Counted from the first letter of the stretch, positions 1,498-15,824 are shown. The stretch is 16,009 bases of DNA from Candidatus Diapherotrites archaeon CG08_land_8_20_14_0_20_30_16 (GCA_002779075.1 PEXK01000030.1:1-16009); one strand, 5' to 3'. Notes: generated from the sequence alone by a model not told the origin. Numbers and translations are program-made.

Positions 1498-2181
1498 TTA
1501 AATGGGTTTAAGATATTTTCTTAGTATTACCTTTTCTTTCTTTATTCCTAATGATTTTGCAAATCTTACAAAATCTTCTTTGTTACTAGTATCTATTTTC
1601 ATTTTTTTGTTTTTATAATCTACAACAAAACTAACAAATGTATTAATTTCTTCATTTTTACAGTCTTTTATAAATTTTAACAATTTTGGCCATGCATCTT
1701 TGTACTTGGGTCTACAAAGCTTCAAATAATCTTTTTCATTTGTTGCATTTAACGATATTCTTATTTCATCTAGCCTTGCATTCTTAAGTTTTTTTGCAGA
1801 ATTGTTGTAAATACAATCAACTAAACCATTAGTATCTATTCTTGTTTTTATTTTGTAATTCTTTTTAACATATTTTAGTATTTGAATTACTTTTGGTAAA
1901 TGAATCAAGGGTTCGCCTAATCCAATTATTGCTAATTCTTTATCATTTTTGTCAATATTATAATTAATTTCTGTGATTATTTCTTTTAATGTTGGTGATT
2001 TCTTCAAATATAAACTTGTTCCTGCTTTAGTTTCATAAATATTTGGTTTGTGAAAATCCTTTTTTGTTCTGGGTCTAGAACAAAAAACACAATTATTTAT
2101 GCAAGTGTAATTAGGAATAATATTTACATATAAAATATTACTAGGATAAATTGGTGTTGAGAATCTATATGTAATAGTCAT
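1498..2181 (-). CDS. Small radical SAM domain protein (about 227 aa, no SPASM-like C-terminal Cys cluster)
   Basis: CxxxCxxC motif in NYTCINNCVFCSR, a GLGEPL SAM-binding-like motif, and RIDTNG. SD aagtgat (rc of 2187-2193) lies 5 nt before ATG 2181. It is 23 nt downstream of the Memo-like gene on the same strand. Confidence 0.75.
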   Translation of the reverse strand: MTITYRFSTPIYPSNILYVNIIPNYTCINNCVFCSRPRTKKDFHKPNIYETKAGTSLYLKKSPTLKEIITEINYNIDKNDKELAIIGLGEPLIHLPKVIQILKYVKKNYKIKTRIDTNGLVDCIYNNSAKKLKNARLDEIRISLNATNEKDYLKLCRPKYKDAWPKLLKFIKDCKNEEINTFVSFVVDYKNKKMKIDTSNKEDFVRFAKSLGIKKEKVILRKYLKPI

Positions 2182-2204
2182 AAATTATCACTTAAACTAA
2201 AACC

Positions 2205-2897
2205 TTAAAACCTAAAGCTTGCATAACCAACAACAGATAATTTGTCTTTTGTTATATCGCCTGAGTTTTTGTATTCAATTAGTTTTGGCTGCCACTTGTT
2301 TTGCTTGCACAAAGCAAACAAAATCTTTAATGCATTTTTTCCGCAAGCATCAATATTAGGAAACTTTTTTAAATCTAGGGTTTCAATAATCTTAATTGTT
2401 TCTTTATCTTTCTTTTTTGCAATATTATATTGCAAAAAATGGGACAAGTCTGTTGAGAAAATAAATAAAGTATCTTTCTTGTTATATTGTTTAACAATAT
2501 TTTTTGCATTGTCGTGCGTAATATCACCAACAACAATTGGCAATATATTGTTTATGTGCAGGTATTGTAAAAATGGAATCTGATTGTCTATAGAATGTTC
2601 ATATTTTAATTTTCTTAAATCAGTTTTTGGAATTTTTACATCTCCAAATGGTGTCTTTATACTCTCTAGTGTACAGGTGCCATAAAAACCAGTATAATGT
2701 GAAGGACCAAAGACAATTGCATGTTTGAATTTCTTATTTTGCAAAAAAGAATATGCTTTTCCTGCTATTTTCCCAGAATATATATATCCTGCATGTGGTA
2801 CAACCAGGCCATTAACAGTATATTTTTGTGTGCTGGTAAGATATGATTTGATTACCTTTTTCAATTCATCTTTGTTATCAGGATACCAGTTAGACAT
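2205..2897 (-). CDS. Memo-like protein (AmmeMemoRadiSam system protein B)
   Basis: MSNWYPDN...VVPHAGYIYSG...FGPSH...EHSIDNQIPFLQY...FSTDLSH...IDACG...YKNSGDIT...VVGYASF. These are all hallmark MEMO1-family motifs and metal-site residues. Confidence 0.85.
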   Translation of the reverse strand: MSNWYPDNKDELKKVIKSYLTSTQKYTVNGLVVPHAGYIYSGKIAGKAYSFLQNKKFKHAIVFGPSHYTGFYGTCTLESIKTPFGDVKIPKTDLRKLKYEHSIDNQIPFLQYLHINNILPIVVGDITHDNAKNIVKQYNKKDTLFIFSTDLSHFLQYNIAKKKDKETIKIIETLDLKKFPNIDACGKNALKILFALCKQNKWQPKLIEYKNSGDITKDKLSVVGYASFRF

Positions 2898-2901
2898 AAT
2901 A

Positions 2902-3837
2902 TCAACTTTTTATTTTCTTTGTAATATTATAATATTTGAGTAGATTTTTAATAATATAACTATGCGCAGTAACTCTTTTTTTTAATTTTATTTTTTTGCT
3001 GTTTGTTTCAACAACCACTACACTTTTTCCTTGCGGTCCTTTTTTAATACTTTTATTTATAATCAGCCTATATGTTGATAATAGTTCATCTATAGAATCA
3101 TCTTTTACATTGGTAACAATACCATTTACAATTTTTTGTTTAAAACTAGTAAATCCAAATTTTTTTATTCTAAATTTTCGTTTTCTTAACAATTTGATGA
3201 TTTCTTTTGCAATTGGATCTTTATGTCTTAAAAAGCCTTGAGAAAAAATATAACTATCAGATACACTATCATCTTCATGCAAATCCAAAACAAGTAATGG
3301 TGGATAATCTTTGACCTGTTTTAAAACAAATTTTGTGATTAATTCAGATTCTTTTAAAATTGGGTTATTTCTTCTGGGTTTTCGGGTATCTTTTAAATCT
3401 ATTAAACAATGTTCTGAATCCCCTACACTTTTTGGTTCTTTGTCTTTTTGAATAGTTTTGGAATAAGGATATCTCCAGTTTTTCATATATCCTATAGGAT
3501 TACATAATGGTAAAAGCACTATAGGGATTTTTTTTCCTAGCTTATTGATATATTCTATATTTTTAGATATTGCATTTGGTCCTGCAGGCTCTTCACCATG
3601 TATTCCTGCAATTAACCAAAGAGCTTTGCCTTTTTTTTTAGTTCTAAAAGTATTTATAAAATAGCTAAATTCTTTTTTTTCATATTTTATTTTTGAAATG
3701 TTGAGAATATTTTTTATCCAATAGTTTTTATTAATTTCTGAATAGGATTTATAGATGTCAAAAAGAGATAATCTTTTATCTTTATTATATGTTGGTAAAT
3801 TATATATTGTTTTTACGGTATCACCTCCGCTAAACAA
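2902..3837 (-). CDS. M14-like zinc hydrolase (carboxypeptidase / succinylglutamate desuccinylase-aspartoacylase superfamily, DUF2817-like)
   Basis: HxxE zinc motif in LWLIAGIHGEEPAGP and a third-ligand-type motif in VLDLHEDD. The stop is 4 nt before the Memo-like start. The start is uncertain: TTG 3837 is the only canonical start, and a strong GGAGGTGAT sits at codons 4-6. Confidence 0.6.
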   Translation of the reverse strand: MFSGGDTVKTIYNLPTYNKDKRLSLFDIYKSYSEINKNYWIKNILNISKIKYEKKEFSYFINTFRTKKKGKALWLIAGIHGEEPAGPNAISKNIEYINKLGKKIPIVLLPLCNPIGYMKNWRYPYSKTIQKDKEPKSVGDSEHCLIDLKDTRKPRRNNPILKESELITKFVLKQVKDYPPLLVLDLHEDDSVSDSYIFSQGFLRHKDPIAKEIIKLLRKRKFRIKKFGFTSFKQKIVNGIVTNVKDDSIDELLSTYRLIINKSIKKGPQGKSVVVVETNSKKIKLKKRVTAHSYIIKNLLKYYNITKKIKS

Positions 3838-3892
3838 AACTATATATATAAAATTAGAAAATTATATATAGGTATCTTACTTATTTATAATT
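3838..3892. promoter_or_regulatory. Divergent promoter region of the AmmeMemoRadiSam locus with two TATA-like elements
   Basis: tatatatata at 3841-3850 and attatatata at 3861-3870. The second is centred about 27 nt upstream of ATG 3893 (no SD, so leaderless-like) and about 29 nt from TTG 3837 on the other strand. Confidence 0.45.
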
Positions 3893-4906
3893 ATGAAAAA
3901 ATGTGTATTATTTAAGAAACTAACAAGTAATAAAGTGAAATGTTTAGCTTGTAATCATTATTGCACAATTGCAGAAACCAAAACAGGTATCTGTGGCGTA
4001 AGAAAAAATATTAAGGGGAAACTATATTTACTAGTTTATGATAAAGTTGTTGCACAAAATATTGATCCTATTGAGAAAAAACCATTATATCATTTTCTTC
4101 CAGGAACAAAAGCATATTCTATTGGCACTGTTGGTTGCAACTTTTTTTGTAAAGGCTGCCAGAATTGGGATATTTCACAAGAACGAAAAATTATTGGCAA
4201 AGAATTAACTCCAAAGGAAATTGTTAATGACGCAATAAAAAACAAATGTAAAAGTATTGCATATACCTATAATGAGCCATCGATATTTATTGAATTTGTA
4301 AAAGCAACTGCTATATTGGCGCACAAAAAAGGTTTGAAGAACATCTTAGTTACAAATGGTTATCTGTCGAAAGAATCTTTAGCATATATTGGAAAGACTG
4401 TTGATGCTATGAATATAGATTTGAAATCATTTTCTGAAAAGTATTACAAAAAGTTTTGTGGTGCTAAATTAAAACCAGTTTTAGATACAATAAAATTAGC
4501 ACACAAAAAAAAGATTTGGATTGAAATAACAACTTTGTTAGTGCCAAATGAGAATGATTCTGTTAAAGAATTGATAAATATAGGGCAGTTTATTGCGAGT
4601 GTAAATAAAAATATCCCTTGGCATATTTCGAGATTCTTTCCAATGTACAAAATGACAAATAAAAAGGAAACAGATATTAAAAAATTGGAAGAAGCATACA
4701 AAATAGGCAAGAAATACTTGAATTTTGTTTATGTTGGCAATTTGCACAAAGAAAACAACACTCTTTGTCCCAAATGTGGTAGTATTGTAATAGATAGATT
4801 TGGATACAATGTTAAAAATAATTTAAATAATAATAAATGCAAGAAATGTAATAGTAAGGTAAGTGGTGTTTATGAATCTAACAAAATTAGCAAGAAAAGC
4901 AATTGA
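3893..4906 (+). CDS. AmmeMemoRadiSam system radical SAM enzyme (PflA/PflX-like activase family)
   Basis: N-terminal Cys cluster KCLACNHYC...GICGVR, PIEKKPLYHF, radical SAM motif GCNFFCKGCQNW, and C-terminal CPKCG...CKKCN zinc-ribbon-like pairs. Adjacent to AMMECR1 and divergent from Memo. Confidence 0.85.
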   Translation: MKKCVLFKKLTSNKVKCLACNHYCTIAETKTGICGVRKNIKGKLYLLVYDKVVAQNIDPIEKKPLYHFLPGTKAYSIGTVGCNFFCKGCQNWDISQERKIIGKELTPKEIVNDAIKNKCKSIAYTYNEPSIFIEFVKATAILAHKKGLKNILVTNGYLSKESLAYIGKTVDAMNIDLKSFSEKYYKKFCGAKLKPVLDTIKLAHKKKIWIEITTLLVPNENDSVKELINIGQFIASVNKNIPWHISRFFPMYKMTNKKETDIKKLEEAYKIGKKYLNFVYVGNLHKENNTLCPKCGSIVIDRFGYNVKNNLNNNKCKKCNSKVSGVYESNKISKKSN

Positions 4907-5396
4907 AAAATATTTTGATGGCGAAATATATGATCCTGATGCAAAAACAAAACAGAAATATACAAAAAAAGGAGCATGTTTTATTACATTAACTAAAAAT
5001 TGGGAGTTAAGAGGTTGTGTTGGTTCTTTGTTGGCACATCAACAGCTGTATAAAGATGTAATAAGGAATGCAATAAATGCTGCATTTAAAGATTATAGAT
5101 TTGAACCATTGCATAAAACTGAAATGTCTAGTATAAAGATAGAAGTATCTGTTTTAACTATCCCTAAAGACTTACAATATAAAAATGAAAATGATTTGTT
5201 AAGCAAGTTGAATCCAAGTATGGGGCTCATTTTAGAAAAATATAATCATAGTGCTACTTTTTTGCCACAAGTCTGGACAGATCTACCAGATAAAAAAGAG
5301 TTTTTAGAAGAATTGAGTTTGAAAGCAGGTCTTGACAGAAATGATTGGAAATCTAGCCACTACAAATATTATAGAGTAAAGAAATATAAGGAATAA
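4872..5396 (+). CDS. AMMECR1 domain protein (AmmeMemoRadiSam system protein A)
   Basis: MNLTKLARKAIEKYF..., GACFITL...LRGCVGS..., AAFKDYRFEPL, SATFLPQVW. The start is moved from the track's GTG 4863 to ATG 4872 (gtggtg ttt ATG). It overlaps the upstream gene by 35 nt. Confidence 0.85.
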   Translation: MNLTKLARKAIEKYFDGEIYDPDAKTKQKYTKKGACFITLTKNWELRGCVGSLLAHQQLYKDVIRNAINAAFKDYRFEPLHKTEMSSIKIEVSVLTIPKDLQYKNENDLLSKLNPSMGLILEKYNHSATFLPQVWTDLPDKKEFLEELSLKAGLDRNDWKSSHYKYYRVKKYKE

Positions 5397-9872: not shown

Positions 9873-9881
9873 AGTGATATT

Positions 9882-10037
9882 ATGAAATTTAGTTGGTTTA
9901 AACAGCATTCAAATGAAGCAAGTAAATGGGAAGAAGAAAGAACAGAAAAAGAGTATGTTAGAAAGCATGAAAGACAAGTAAGAAAATCAAGATTGGAGGA
10001 TATGAAAAGGTTTAATATAGAACGTAAACAGAAATAG
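9882..10037 (+). CDS. Small highly charged 51-aa ORF (MKFSWFKQHSNEASKWEEERTEKEYVRKHERQVRKSRLEDMKRFNIERKQK)
   Basis: Not in the ORF track (under 60 aa). aagtgatatt ATG is the same SD/spacer string as upstream of adk. It starts 9 nt after the previous stop. Confidence 0.45.
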   Translation: MKFSWFKQHSNEASKWEEERTEKEYVRKHERQVRKSRLEDMKRFNIERKQK

Positions 10038-10048
10038 GAGGAATAAAT

Positions 10049-10165
10049 ATGCCACCATTAAAAACACCAGTAAGACCAAGACCTATAAGAGGTCCTGGCA
10101 GTACTGTAAGACAAGGATCTACAAGAATATCTAAAAGTAGTGGTCGTAGAACATATCCCAAATAA
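10049..10165 (+). CDS. Small Pro/Arg-rich basic 38-aa ORF (MPPLKTPVRPRPIRGPGSTVRQGSTRISKSSGRRTYPK)
   Basis: Not in the ORF track. A strong SD, AGGAGGA (10036-10042), lies 6 nt before ATG 10049 and overlaps the previous stop codon. Confidence 0.5.
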   Translation: MPPLKTPVRPRPIRGPGSTVRQGSTRISKSSGRRTYPK

Positions 10166-10257
10166 ACAGGATATTTTCTTACAGACCAAAACCTAATGGT
10201 TTATGTTTAACCAAAGAGTTTATAAACTTTTAAAAAATATAATATACAGTGATGTAA

Positions 10258-10386
10258 TTGGGATTATTCAGAGCACCTAATAGATTACCAAAAGTAACAA
10301 TCAAAACGCCCCCTAGGTTAGAACAAAATAGTTATAATAATAGAGATTTACCTAATTTTAGATATTTTCATAAATTGAGGATTTAA
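10258..10386 (+). CDS. Possible small 42-aa basic ORF (MGLFRAPNRLPKVTIKTPPRLEQNSYNNRDLPNFRYFHKLRI)
   Basis: agtgat gtaa TTG: SD-like GTGAT lies 4 nt before TTG 10258. The 3' end overlaps the stop of the convergent permease gene by 4 nt. Weakest of the small ORFs. Confidence 0.3.
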   Translation: MGLFRAPNRLPKVTIKTPPRLEQNSYNNRDLPNFRYFHKLRI

Positions 10387-13967: not shown

Positions 13968-14081
13968 TAAACCACCTAATTTTTTAATTTATAAATATTA
14001 TGAGAGCTAAGGTTTTAAATATATAAGGAATAATATATAATAAGCAATGCAAGCTGTTTTTTATTTAGGGGTATGAGAGTT

Positions 14082-15824
14082 ATGGACGCAAAAACATTGA
14101 AAAAGAAGTACATTGATTTCTTCAAAAGCAAAGGACATATTGAGATTCCGTCTGCTTCTTTAGTACCAGAGAATGATCCTACTGTGTTATTCACAACAGC
14201 AGGTATGCATCCTTTGGTGCCTTATTTGATTGGGCAGAAGCACCCTTTGGGTAAAAGATTAGTTAATGTTCAAAGATGCATAAGGACAGCGGATATTGAT
14301 GAAGTAGGTGACACTTATCATCATACTTTTTTTGAAATGTTAGGTAACTGGTCATTAGGGGGTTATTTCAAGAAAGAAGCAATTGAGCTTATTTTTGAAT
14401 TTCACACAAAGATTTTGGGTATATCACCGAAAAGGTACGCAGTTACTGTTTTTAGTGGTAACAAAACTAGTCCTAAAGATATTGAGTCAGAAAATACCTG
14501 GTTGTCTTTAGGGGTACCAAAAGAAAGAATTGCATTTTTGGAAGATAACTGGTGGTGGCCACCAGGCTCAACTGGGCCGTGTGGACCAGATACTGAAATG
14601 TTTTATTGGAAACCTAATGATATTCCCGGCCCAAAAAAATTTGACCCTTCTGATGCAAGATGGGTAGAAATAGGTAATAATGTATTGATGCAATACATAA
14701 AAACAGACAAAGGCCAGCTTTTAGAAGCAAAACAGAAAAATATTGATTTCGGTGGCGGTGTTGAAAGAACTGTCACTGTATTGAGTGGTTTGGAGGATGA
14801 TTATCTTTCTGATACTTTTTTGCCGATAATAAAAAAAATAGAAAATCTATCCAATAAGAAATATATTGGCAATGAAAAAGCAATGCGAATAATAGCAGAT
14901 CACATAAAAGCATCAGTTTTTATTATTGGCGATGGTGTTGTTCCAAGCAATAATGAAAGAGGATATGTTTTAAGAAGATTAATTAGAAGAGCAATAAGAT
15001 TTGGTGTAGAGTTAGGACTAAAACAATTTACTAAATCAATAGGGACTGCTGTTTTTAAAATTTATTCCGATTCAAATTATGATTTTTTGCAAAAAAATAA
15101 ACATCACATATTAACAGAGTTGGAAAAAGAAGAAAATAAATTTACACAAACCCTGCAACAGGGAATTAAGGAATTTAACAAAATAGTAGATAAATGGAAA
15201 GATATAAATGGTGAAGATGCATTTTTGTTATATCAATCTTATGGTTTTCCAATTGAAATGACTATTGAATTAGCAAAAGAAAAAAATATCAAAGTTGATT
15301 TAAATGGTTTTAATGAAGAATATAAAAAACATCAGGAATTATCTCGAACATTATCTGCAGGACAATTTAAATCTGGATTACAAGACAACTCAGATATAAC
15401 AAAAAGGTTGCACACAGCAACTCATTTGTTAAATGAAGCTCTACGTAGAGTTGTATCCAAGGATATTAAACAAAAAGGATCAAATATAACTCCTGAAAGA
15501 TTAAGATTTGATTTCAATCACCACAATGCTTTGACTCAAGATGAAATTAAGGCTGTAGAAGATGAAGTAAATAAAATAATACAGCAGAAATTGACAGTAA
15601 AGAAAGAAGACCTGCCCTTAAAAGAGGCATTAAAGAGTGGTTGCCAAGCAGAATTTAGTATAAAATATCCCGACAAAGTAACAGTTTATTCTATTGGGTC
15701 GTACTCAAAAGAAATTTGCATGGGTCCACATGTTGATAACACCTCTCAATTAGGTTGTTTCAAAATAATAAAAGAAGAATCATCTGCATCAGGAATTCGA
15801 AGAATCAAAGCTGTTTTGGAGTGA
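14082..15824 (+). CDS. alaS: Alanyl-tRNA synthetase, short bacterial-type form (catalytic, tRNA-recognition and editing domains; no C-Ala domain)
   Basis: FFKSKGH, LVPENDPTVLFTTAGM, QRCIRTADIDEVGDTYHHTFFEMLGNWS, GPCGPDTEMFY, VEIGNNVLMQY, GGGVERT. Editing-site motifs HTATHLLNEALR and CMGPHV are present, and the protein ends ...ASGIRRIKAVLE. ATG 14082 is 9 nt after AGGGGT (14067-14072). ATG 14073 (the track start) abuts the SD and is the alternative. Confidence 0.9.
   Translation: MDAKTLKKKYIDFFKSKGHIEIPSASLVPENDPTVLFTTAGMHPLVPYLIGQKHPLGKRLVNVQRCIRTADIDEVGDTYHHTFFEMLGNWSLGGYFKKEAIELIFEFHTKILGISPKRYAVTVFSGNKTSPKDIESENTWLSLGVPKERIAFLEDNWWWPPGSTGPCGPDTEMFYWKPNDIPGPKKFDPSDARWVEIGNNVLMQYIKTDKGQLLEAKQKNIDFGGGVERTVTVLSGLEDDYLSDTFLPIIKKIENLSNKKYIGNEKAMRIIADHIKASVFIIGDGVVPSNNERGYVLRRLIRRAIRFGVELGLKQFTKSIGTAVFKIYSDSNYDFLQKNKHHILTELEKEENKFTQTLQQGIKEFNKIVDKWKDINGEDAFLLYQSYGFPIEMTIELAKEKNIKVDLNGFNEEYKKHQELSRTLSAGQFKSGLQDNSDITKRLHTATHLLNEALRRVVSKDIKQKGSNITPERLRFDFNHHNALTQDEIKAVEDEVNKIIQQKLTVKKEDLPLKEALKSGCQAEFSIKYPDKVTVYSIGSYSKEICMGPHVDNTSQLGCFKIIKEESSASGIRRIKAVLE

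Follow-up and report, generated by a model that had tools for sequence, protein, structure and literature searches.

Positions 1498–5396 of a 16,009-nucleotide stretch of DNA from Candidatus Diapherotrites archaeon CG08_land_8_20_14_0_20_30_16 (GCA_002779075.1, PEXK01000030.1:1-16009; the whole stretch is referred to here as the window) encode the three proteins of the AmmeMemoRadiSam system together with two further enzymes, an M14-like zinc hydrolase and a small radical S-adenosylmethionine (rSAM) protein. The locus is probably a standard AmmeMemoRadiSam unit of DPANN archaea beside which lineage-specific rearrangement has placed two unrelated genes. A short AT-rich bidirectional promoter would drive AMMECR1 and the pyruvate formate-lyase (PFL)-activase-like rSAM gene of the system in one direction and Memo in the opposite one. 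The placement of the hydrolase gene between this promoter and Memo would have arisen a single time, within a narrow clade of roughly family rank, with later losses of the hydrolase and of the three-gene system that were independent of each other. The small rSAM gene, whose relatives normally lie behind a gene for a truncated type-2 seryl-tRNA synthetase (SerRS)-like ligase under a divergent TrmB-type regulator, would have landed downstream of Memo in this species alone. The minus-strand trio would be co-transcribed up to a hairpin in 1443–1497, as a case of passive operon sharing in a compact genome with no shared pathway, and the small rSAM protein would act in a separate pathway whose starting point is an amino acid that the SerRS-like ligase has activated.

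The five genes form two divergent arms. The minus-strand arm consists, in the direction of transcription, of the hydrolase gene (2902–3837, 311 residues, TTG start, with the motifs GIHGEEPAG and VLDLHEDD), Memo (AmmeMemoRadiSam protein B; 2205–2897, 230 residues) and the small rSAM gene (1498–2181, 227 residues, with CINNCVFC corresponding to C27-x3-C31-x2-C34). The plus-strand arm begins with the PflX-like (PFL-activase-like) AmmeMemoRadiSam rSAM gene (3893–4906, 337 residues), which carries CNFFCKGC and a Cys-rich N-terminal stretch, and ends with AMMECR1 (protein A; 4872–5396, 174 residues). The ATG at 4872 matches the gene call on the identical contig L154, with an alternative GTG at 4863. 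Gaps of 23, 4 and 55 nucleotides separate the small rSAM gene from Memo, Memo from the hydrolase gene and the hydrolase gene from the PflX-like rSAM gene, respectively, and the last of these overlaps AMMECR1 by 35 nucleotides. All five genes, the zinc and iron–sulfur motifs and the 4-, 23- and 55-nucleotide spacers lie where an earlier reading of the DNA, made from the sequence alone (the sequence-only reading), had placed them. The layout is repeated at 97–100% identity on three independent Joint Genome Institute (JGI) metagenome contigs from different samples (L154–L156; L-numbers label comparison loci from genomes and metagenomes), and is thus real and not an assembly artefact.

The three core proteins, co-located within 2205–5396 around a single 55-nucleotide spacer, all exceed the curated cut-offs of their families. 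Memo scores 191.7 bits against TIGR04336 (cut-off 26; PF01875, 1.1e-44), the PflX-like rSAM protein 330.9 bits against TIGR04337 (cut-off 220; PF04055 Radical_SAM, 4e-24) and AMMECR1 190.7 bits against TIGR04335 (cut-off 99; PF01871, 1.8e-44), which confirms that the three defining genes of the system surround one short divergent spacer, as had been claimed. Memo, for which 1081 homologues were found at E ≤ 1e-20, has the compact 230-residue form typical of DPANN, and the divergent order A←rSAM←|→B is that of other DPANN archaea. The locus departs from these in that its Memo arm is shared with two extra genes, which the comparative data below place outside the system. AMMECR1, Memo and their rSAM partner have been conserved all the way from archaea to humans; we know of no established biochemistry for them. 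Burroughs et al. are said to have proposed, in 2019, links to nucleotide-base or isoprenoid modification. Literature searches on AmmeMemoRadiSam, on TIGR04038 and TIGR04100, and on SerRS-like proteins together with rSAM proteins returned no functional study, and AMMECR1 has been placed among the top-priority uncharacterised archaeal families (PMC6393860).

The closest relatives of the locus carry the hydrolase and the core genes in different combinations. The nearest relatives of the window are DPANN metagenome-assembled genomes labelled Diapherotrites, Woesearchaeota, Pacearchaeota or Nanoarchaeota. A gene block ABC-ABC2-ABC2-pilin-like-SerRS is common to the window, L081, L086 and L157, and the slot in or next to this block varies in content. 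The slot reads AMMECR1←rSAM←|→M14→Memo in the window and in L083 (Memo 62% identical to that of the window), AMMECR1←rSAM←|36 nt|→Memo in L157/L158 (Memo 78% identical) and rSAM←|→Memo in L159 (75%), the hydrolase being absent from the latter two, and it holds the hydrolase alone in L081 and L086. The loci that differ in this way are closely related: L081 and L083 share 91% identity in GluRS and 79% in the hydrolase, and L086 and L157 share 81% in SerRS and 75% in GluRS. In L081 the hydrolase gene is cleanly flanked by genes for a Na/H exchanger and GluRS; AMMECR1 and the rSAM gene are cleanly gone from one flank, and Memo from the opposite flank. These slot contents indicate that the core trio is lost together, as a module, and that the hydrolase is both kept and lost without it. 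L001:134-2400, a 2.9-kb contig with the closest relative of the hydrolase, reads AMMECR1←|→M14→Memo. Here the rSAM gene is missing from its usual place between AMMECR1 and the hydrolase gene, and Memo has a frameshift at about residue 155, whereas the hydrolase gene is intact. Either the system has decayed here or the contig is misassembled. The relatives, with both components, the core only or the hydrolase only, would constitute a ready-made test set once genomes or transcriptomes are at hand.

Homologues of the hydrolase form 375 protein clusters at E ≤ 1e-3 and occur in at least 259 genomes of DPANN, Patescibacteria, Gammaproteobacteria (many of them Steroidobacteraceae), Acidobacteriota and Elusimicrobia. 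The neighbourhoods of the best 80 of the 259 genome matches (about 8 kb around each; 1.04 Mb in total, with 48 loci of at least 12 kb) were searched by tblastn at E ≤ 1e-3 with four queries from the window (Memo, AMMECR1 and the two rSAM proteins). L001 was the only locus with Memo and AMMECR1, and L031, from a bacterium, the only one with a TIGR04337 rSAM gene, located about 750 bp upstream and divergent. At the remaining 78 of the 80 loci no core AmmeMemoRadiSam gene was detected within about 8 kb. Adjacency of the hydrolase gene and Memo is confined to the window, L001 and L083.

Several observations weigh against an unrelated hydrolase, and some of them speak directly for a clade-specific recruitment in which the enzyme would be a real AmmeMemoRadiSam accessory in the clade of the window, L001 and L083, trimming or deacylating the substrate or product. 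The hydrolase gene lies inside the unit, between the promoter and Memo with a 4-nucleotide gap, and M14→Memo are still adjacent in these three diverged lineages, at 62–79% Memo identity, a persistence that might be longer than expected of neutral adjacency in the fast-shuffling genomes of DPANN archaea. The active site is intact and invariant, an independent bacterial TIGR04337 rSAM gene diverges from an M14-like homologue in L031, and recruitment would fit the idea of a peptide or C-terminal substrate put forward earlier. The survey reached the top 80 of 259 genome matches over about 8 kb, and many of the metagenome loci are short (median 4.3 kb). Retention of the hydrolase alone (L081, L086) or of the core alone (L157, L159) was judged at the level of the locus, so that the genomes of L081 and L086 could still hold core genes at other positions, and co-expression of the guest genes with Memo, which is likely, could matter physiologically. 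Recruitment of the hydrolase nevertheless appears unlikely: two relatives retain the hydrolase where the core trio has been lost at the locus and two others show the reverse, nearly the whole of the surveyed family is unlinked to the system, and on our rough estimate about 0.5 chance adjacencies would be expected among some 80 loci, so that a single one is roughly what chance would give. The homologue in L031, moreover, has an N-terminal hydrophobic segment that looks signal-peptide-like by eye, which would put it in a compartment apart from the cytosolic rSAM protein.

The small rSAM protein has a family and a conserved neighbourhood of its own. It matches PF04055 (5e-17), and C27, C31 and C34 are invariant. 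Its scores fall below the cut-offs of the closest curated families, at 120.2 bits against 262 for TIGR04100 (rSAM_pair_X) and 108.4 against 129.7 for TIGR04038 (TatD family nuclease-associated rSAM). With these it shares a single domain of about 200–230 residues and an N-terminal CxxxCxxC motif, and many of its homologues bear the TIGR04038 name in JGI annotation; by its profile scores it is related to the two families without belonging to either. Unlike TIGR04038 proteins, its family has a SerRS-like ligase and not TatD as the recurrent partner in DPANN and CPR, and a scan of the 15 larger proteins of the window found no TatD domain. The AlphaFold2 (AF2) model (predicted local distance difference test score (pLDDT) 93.5) has the partial TIM-barrel typical of rSAM proteins and matches the cores of NifB, BioB, TYW1 and viperin. 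Assignment to a specific rSAM subfamily by fold search was rejected, as only generic rSAM cores were recovered.

The family comprises 109 clusters from DPANN and CPR. When its neighbours were clustered, two genes recurred. One lies immediately upstream in the same orientation and encodes a SerRS catalytic core of type 2 (methanogen type), truncated to about 330 residues; the other, beyond it and divergent, encodes a TrmB-type regulator. By tblastn, the SerRS-like gene is immediately upstream in 23 of 54 small rSAM loci (18 of 34 when only loci with 600 bp or more of upstream sequence are counted), and a TrmB-like gene is present in 19 of the 54. The three-gene module recurs in L087–L141 (for example L096:465-3027 and L089:3790-6238) and in L153:682-2323, where the closest relative of the small rSAM protein, 74% identical, still follows a SerRS-like gene. 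The SerRS-like partner, which the window lacks, resembles amino acid:[carrier-protein] ligases such as Bradyrhizobium Bll0957 (PDB 3mey), which it matches, and is devoid of the domain that binds tRNA. In an alignment with PDB 3w3s, its Cys/Glu/Cys positions fall on the equivalent Cys, Glu and Cys residues, the zinc ligands of type-2 SerRS. No account of the pairing of SerRS-like ligase, rSAM protein and TrmB-type regulator was found in the searchable literature. From this conserved neighbourhood, the small rSAM protein is most plausibly a component of a separate SerRS-like ligase pathway, and the SerRS-like/rSAM/TrmB module is a more promising lead than the guests of the AmmeMemoRadiSam unit described here.

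Both the ligase and the regulator are absent from the window. Conversely, Memo, AMMECR1 or the hydrolase was found near a small rSAM homologue in none of 66 metagenome loci, and a PFL-activase-like rSAM gene in one of them, 4.5 kb away. Among relatives of the window's Memo, none of the six loci having downstream sequence carries the small rSAM gene there, the nearest ones (L157, L159 and L083) included; the adjacency is seen in this species only, on 100%-identical contigs. The gene lies at a synteny breakpoint, the block shared with relatives (ABC-ABC2-ABC2-pilin-SerRS…Memo) ending exactly at the 3′ end of Memo. These data bear on the proposal that, in this species, the small rSAM protein left its SerRS-like partner and serves the system as a functional second rSAM enzyme, for example by replacing or complementing a step. 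The 23-nucleotide gap, the GTGAT Shine–Dalgarno-like motif, the lack of a strong terminator after Memo and the reproduction of the layout in three independent samples are all compatible with such a role, and additional rSAM genes lie within the unit of L160, from a different DPANN lineage. Those genes, however, come from unrelated families (mobile-pair-B-like, and one with a MoaA/SPASM-like N terminus). With an adjacency limited to identical sequences, missing in relatives at 74% and 67% identity and in all 66 metagenome loci, with a different conserved partner for the family and with the gene at a breakpoint, a second functional rSAM enzyme is highly improbable.

The hydrolase and the small rSAM gene thus stand beside Memo only in the window or its close relatives, the outcome that the sequence-only reading had itself set in advance as counting against its proposal. 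Its suggestion that the two enzymes are wired into the system is not supported: adjacency of the hydrolase is limited to the window, L001 and L083 while other relatives hold either the hydrolase or the system alone, and the small rSAM gene accompanies Memo in a single species and has its conserved partner elsewhere. Because both enzymes come and go independently of the system, a model with a peptide or protein C-terminal substrate, which finds no comparative support, is unwarranted from this locus. Had an accessory enzyme been conserved, it would have given valuable information on the substrate. On the comparative evidence neither guest provides a reliable clue, and the locus does not narrow the function of AmmeMemoRadiSam. 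It is quite unlikely that the hydrolase, in its narrow clade, and also the orphaned small rSAM protein, in this species, were truly recruited into the pathway. If they were, a C-terminal or N-acyl amide bond open to hydrolysis would be present in the substrate or product of the system, and experiments would gain a first entry point to the substrate class of this widespread system.

Guest genes are also found in other DPANN units. Nine distinct Memo loci were sampled (the window, L001, L083, L157, L159, L160, L161, L163 and L165), a small and non-random set. The guest-free arrangement AMMECR1←rSAM←|~35 nt|→Memo occurs in L157/L158 and L165/L166. L160:1094-5714 includes a gene for an rSAM mobile-pair-B-like protein, one for a 378-residue rSAM protein with a MoaA/SPASM-like N terminus and a 114-residue open reading frame (ORF), and L161:2577-5687 a GNAT acetyltransferase gene and a 95-residue ORF. 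In L163/L164 the rSAM gene and Memo are divergent and the place of AMMECR1 is taken by two unrelated small ORFs (L163:3637-5699). The small guest ORFs span 78–114 residues; those between the rSAM gene and AMMECR1 (L160, L161) or replacing AMMECR1 (L163) were considered as a hidden fourth component and rejected, being mutually non-homologous.

With at least one guest inside or attached to the divergent unit in five of the nine Memo loci (the window, L001, L083, L160 and L161), the units might be seen as hubs that recruit variable tailoring enzymes, their small-molecule or peptide product being decorated differently in each lineage. We consider this very unlikely, as the guests are mutually non-homologous and each is restricted to one lineage, L157 and L165 are free of guests, as is L159 over its available sequence, and L163 has only its two unrelated small ORFs. 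Mixed operons of unrelated genes are, furthermore, common in reduced genomes, and the proportion of five in nine comes from the small, non-random sample. The guests around the divergent pair look like the product of ordinary gene shuffling, in keeping with the origin by rearrangement preferred for the window.

The hydrolase itself is predicted to be a cytosolic zinc hydrolase of the AstE/AspA type, within the M14 clan. In a Pfam search it matched PF24827 (AstE_AspA_cat) at 29.4 bits against a threshold of 25, through its N-terminal 56 residues, covering only 56 of the 192 model positions. Peptidase_M14 (PF00246) remained below threshold (17.3 against 21.6 bits), as did Peptidase_M99, and DUF2817 gave no match. 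The protein shares with the AstE/AspA branch the HxxE…H zinc triad and a downstream Glu. H80, E83, H187 and E277 are invariant in an alignment with 25 diverse homologues, and by the order and spacing of the motifs H80, E83 and H187 are predicted to be the zinc ligands and E277 the catalytic residue. The zinc site noted in the initial reading is therefore intact, and the broken active site that would have spoken against it was not found.

The AF2 model of the hydrolase (pLDDT 92.6) shows an alpha/beta fold of the carboxypeptidase type and has as its best PDB folds the putative metallopeptidases 2qvp, 3ieh and 3b2y of Shewanella, Francisella REP34 and carboxypeptidases A and B, and its top 50 PDB matches are all of the M14 type (E down to 5e-14). 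The predicted fold matches 2qvp, 3ieh and 3b2y with template modelling (TM) scores of 0.72–0.74, normalised to the target, at a sequence identity of 18–19%. Identification by sequence with a characterised enzyme was rejected: the score against NF052223 (Shewanella N-acetylornithine deacetylase) is 31.5 bits against a cut-off of 400, and the PDB matches are structural-genomics proteins without known function. The protein represents a distinct family, about 300 residues long and distributed across DPANN, CPR and several bacterial phyla. From the modelled fold and the active site, the hydrolase is most likely a stand-alone cytosolic carboxypeptidase or N-acyl-amino-acid deacylase that could serve, for example, in peptide or amino-acid salvage.

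A conserved neighbour that might reveal the pathway of the hydrolase family was sought, and only weak clade-specific syntenies were found, each in at most 8 of 75 loci. By eye, some Woesearchaeota loci have membrane proteins of about 360–460 residues that resemble pilus-assembly proteins of the FlaJ/PilC type, and those of Gammaproteobacteria have tetratricopeptide repeat (TPR)-sulfotransferase or TonB-receptor-like proteins. Several Woesearchaeota and Nanoarchaeota genomes carry two hydrolase paralogues at separate loci (L009/L025, both on contig CAZXHH010000001.1; L003/L020; L006/L023), neither of which adjoins AmmeMemoRadiSam genes.

The divergent spacer (3838–3892, 55 nucleotides) is AT-rich, contains two TATA-like runs and is presumed to be a bidirectional archaeal promoter. 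The equivalent spacer between the rSAM gene and Memo is about 35 nucleotides long in L157, L163 and L165 (36 in L157). The half of the 55-nucleotide spacer on the hydrolase side is part of an insertion of about 24 nucleotides common to the window and L001 (located within window 3790–3860, at the 5′ end of the hydrolase gene, and within L001:690-810), which in an alignment of the relatives is absent from L081, L083 and L086. The insertion extends into the first codons of the hydrolase gene and bears a perfect GGAGGTG Shine–Dalgarno motif. In L001 a GTG follows this motif by 5 nucleotides, where the other relatives have ATG; the codon at this position in the window is GTA, and the sole canonical start of the window's hydrolase gene is the in-frame TTG at 3837, upstream of GGAGGTG. 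The true start of the gene is accordingly best regarded as uncertain.

Downstream of Memo, the 23-nucleotide spacer on the minus strand (2182–2204) contains the GTGAT pentamer, 5 nucleotides before the ATG of the small rSAM gene, and lacks a long T-run, so that read-through from Memo into the small rSAM gene is likely. The convergent intergenic spacer beyond the small rSAM gene (1443–1497) contains a hairpin, AAGGGA-ATTAA-TCCCTT, with T-runs on either side; an 80-nucleotide stretch around it folds at −10.2 kcal/mol in RNAfold, and the hairpin probably ends the transcript of the hydrolase, Memo and small rSAM genes. Given the 4- and 23-nucleotide gaps, the GTGAT motif and the absence of a T-run, a single M14→Memo→small rSAM transcript is likely, and the three genes are probably co-transcribed in the host organism, in agreement with the co-transcription deduced at the outset from their tight spacing. 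Such spacing is, however, weak evidence of a shared pathway, because small gaps and overlaps are normal throughout the window, where same-strand intergenic gaps range from −35 to +24 nucleotides in half of the cases.

The window as a whole is AT-rich (GC content about 28%) and includes housekeeping genes for a canonical SerRS, adenylate kinase and alanyl-tRNA synthetase (AlaRS), as well as an ABC transporter and a class-III signal peptide protein. Its largest apparently non-coding stretch, 9873–10382 (510 nucleotides), gave no match in tRNA and Rfam scans, which were likewise negative for the rest of the window. Within it, an AGGAGG motif precedes an ORF of 38 codons that falls below the threshold of the ORF list and would encode a highly basic peptide, MPPLKTPVRPRPIRGPGSTVRQGSTRISKSSGRRTYPK. 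The AlaRS ORF (14073–15824) encodes only 583 residues, comprising the catalytic domain and tRNA_SAD. It is closed by a stop codon, and no obvious continuation follows in the remainder of the window; the gene may be shortened or split. Split AlaRS genes have been reported for Nanoarchaeum. Among the comparison loci, L159:1746-6273 carries Memo followed by cas2-cas1-cas4 and a gene for a 918-residue protein without a Pfam match; this may be a DPANN CRISPR-Cas locus whose effector has escaped annotation.

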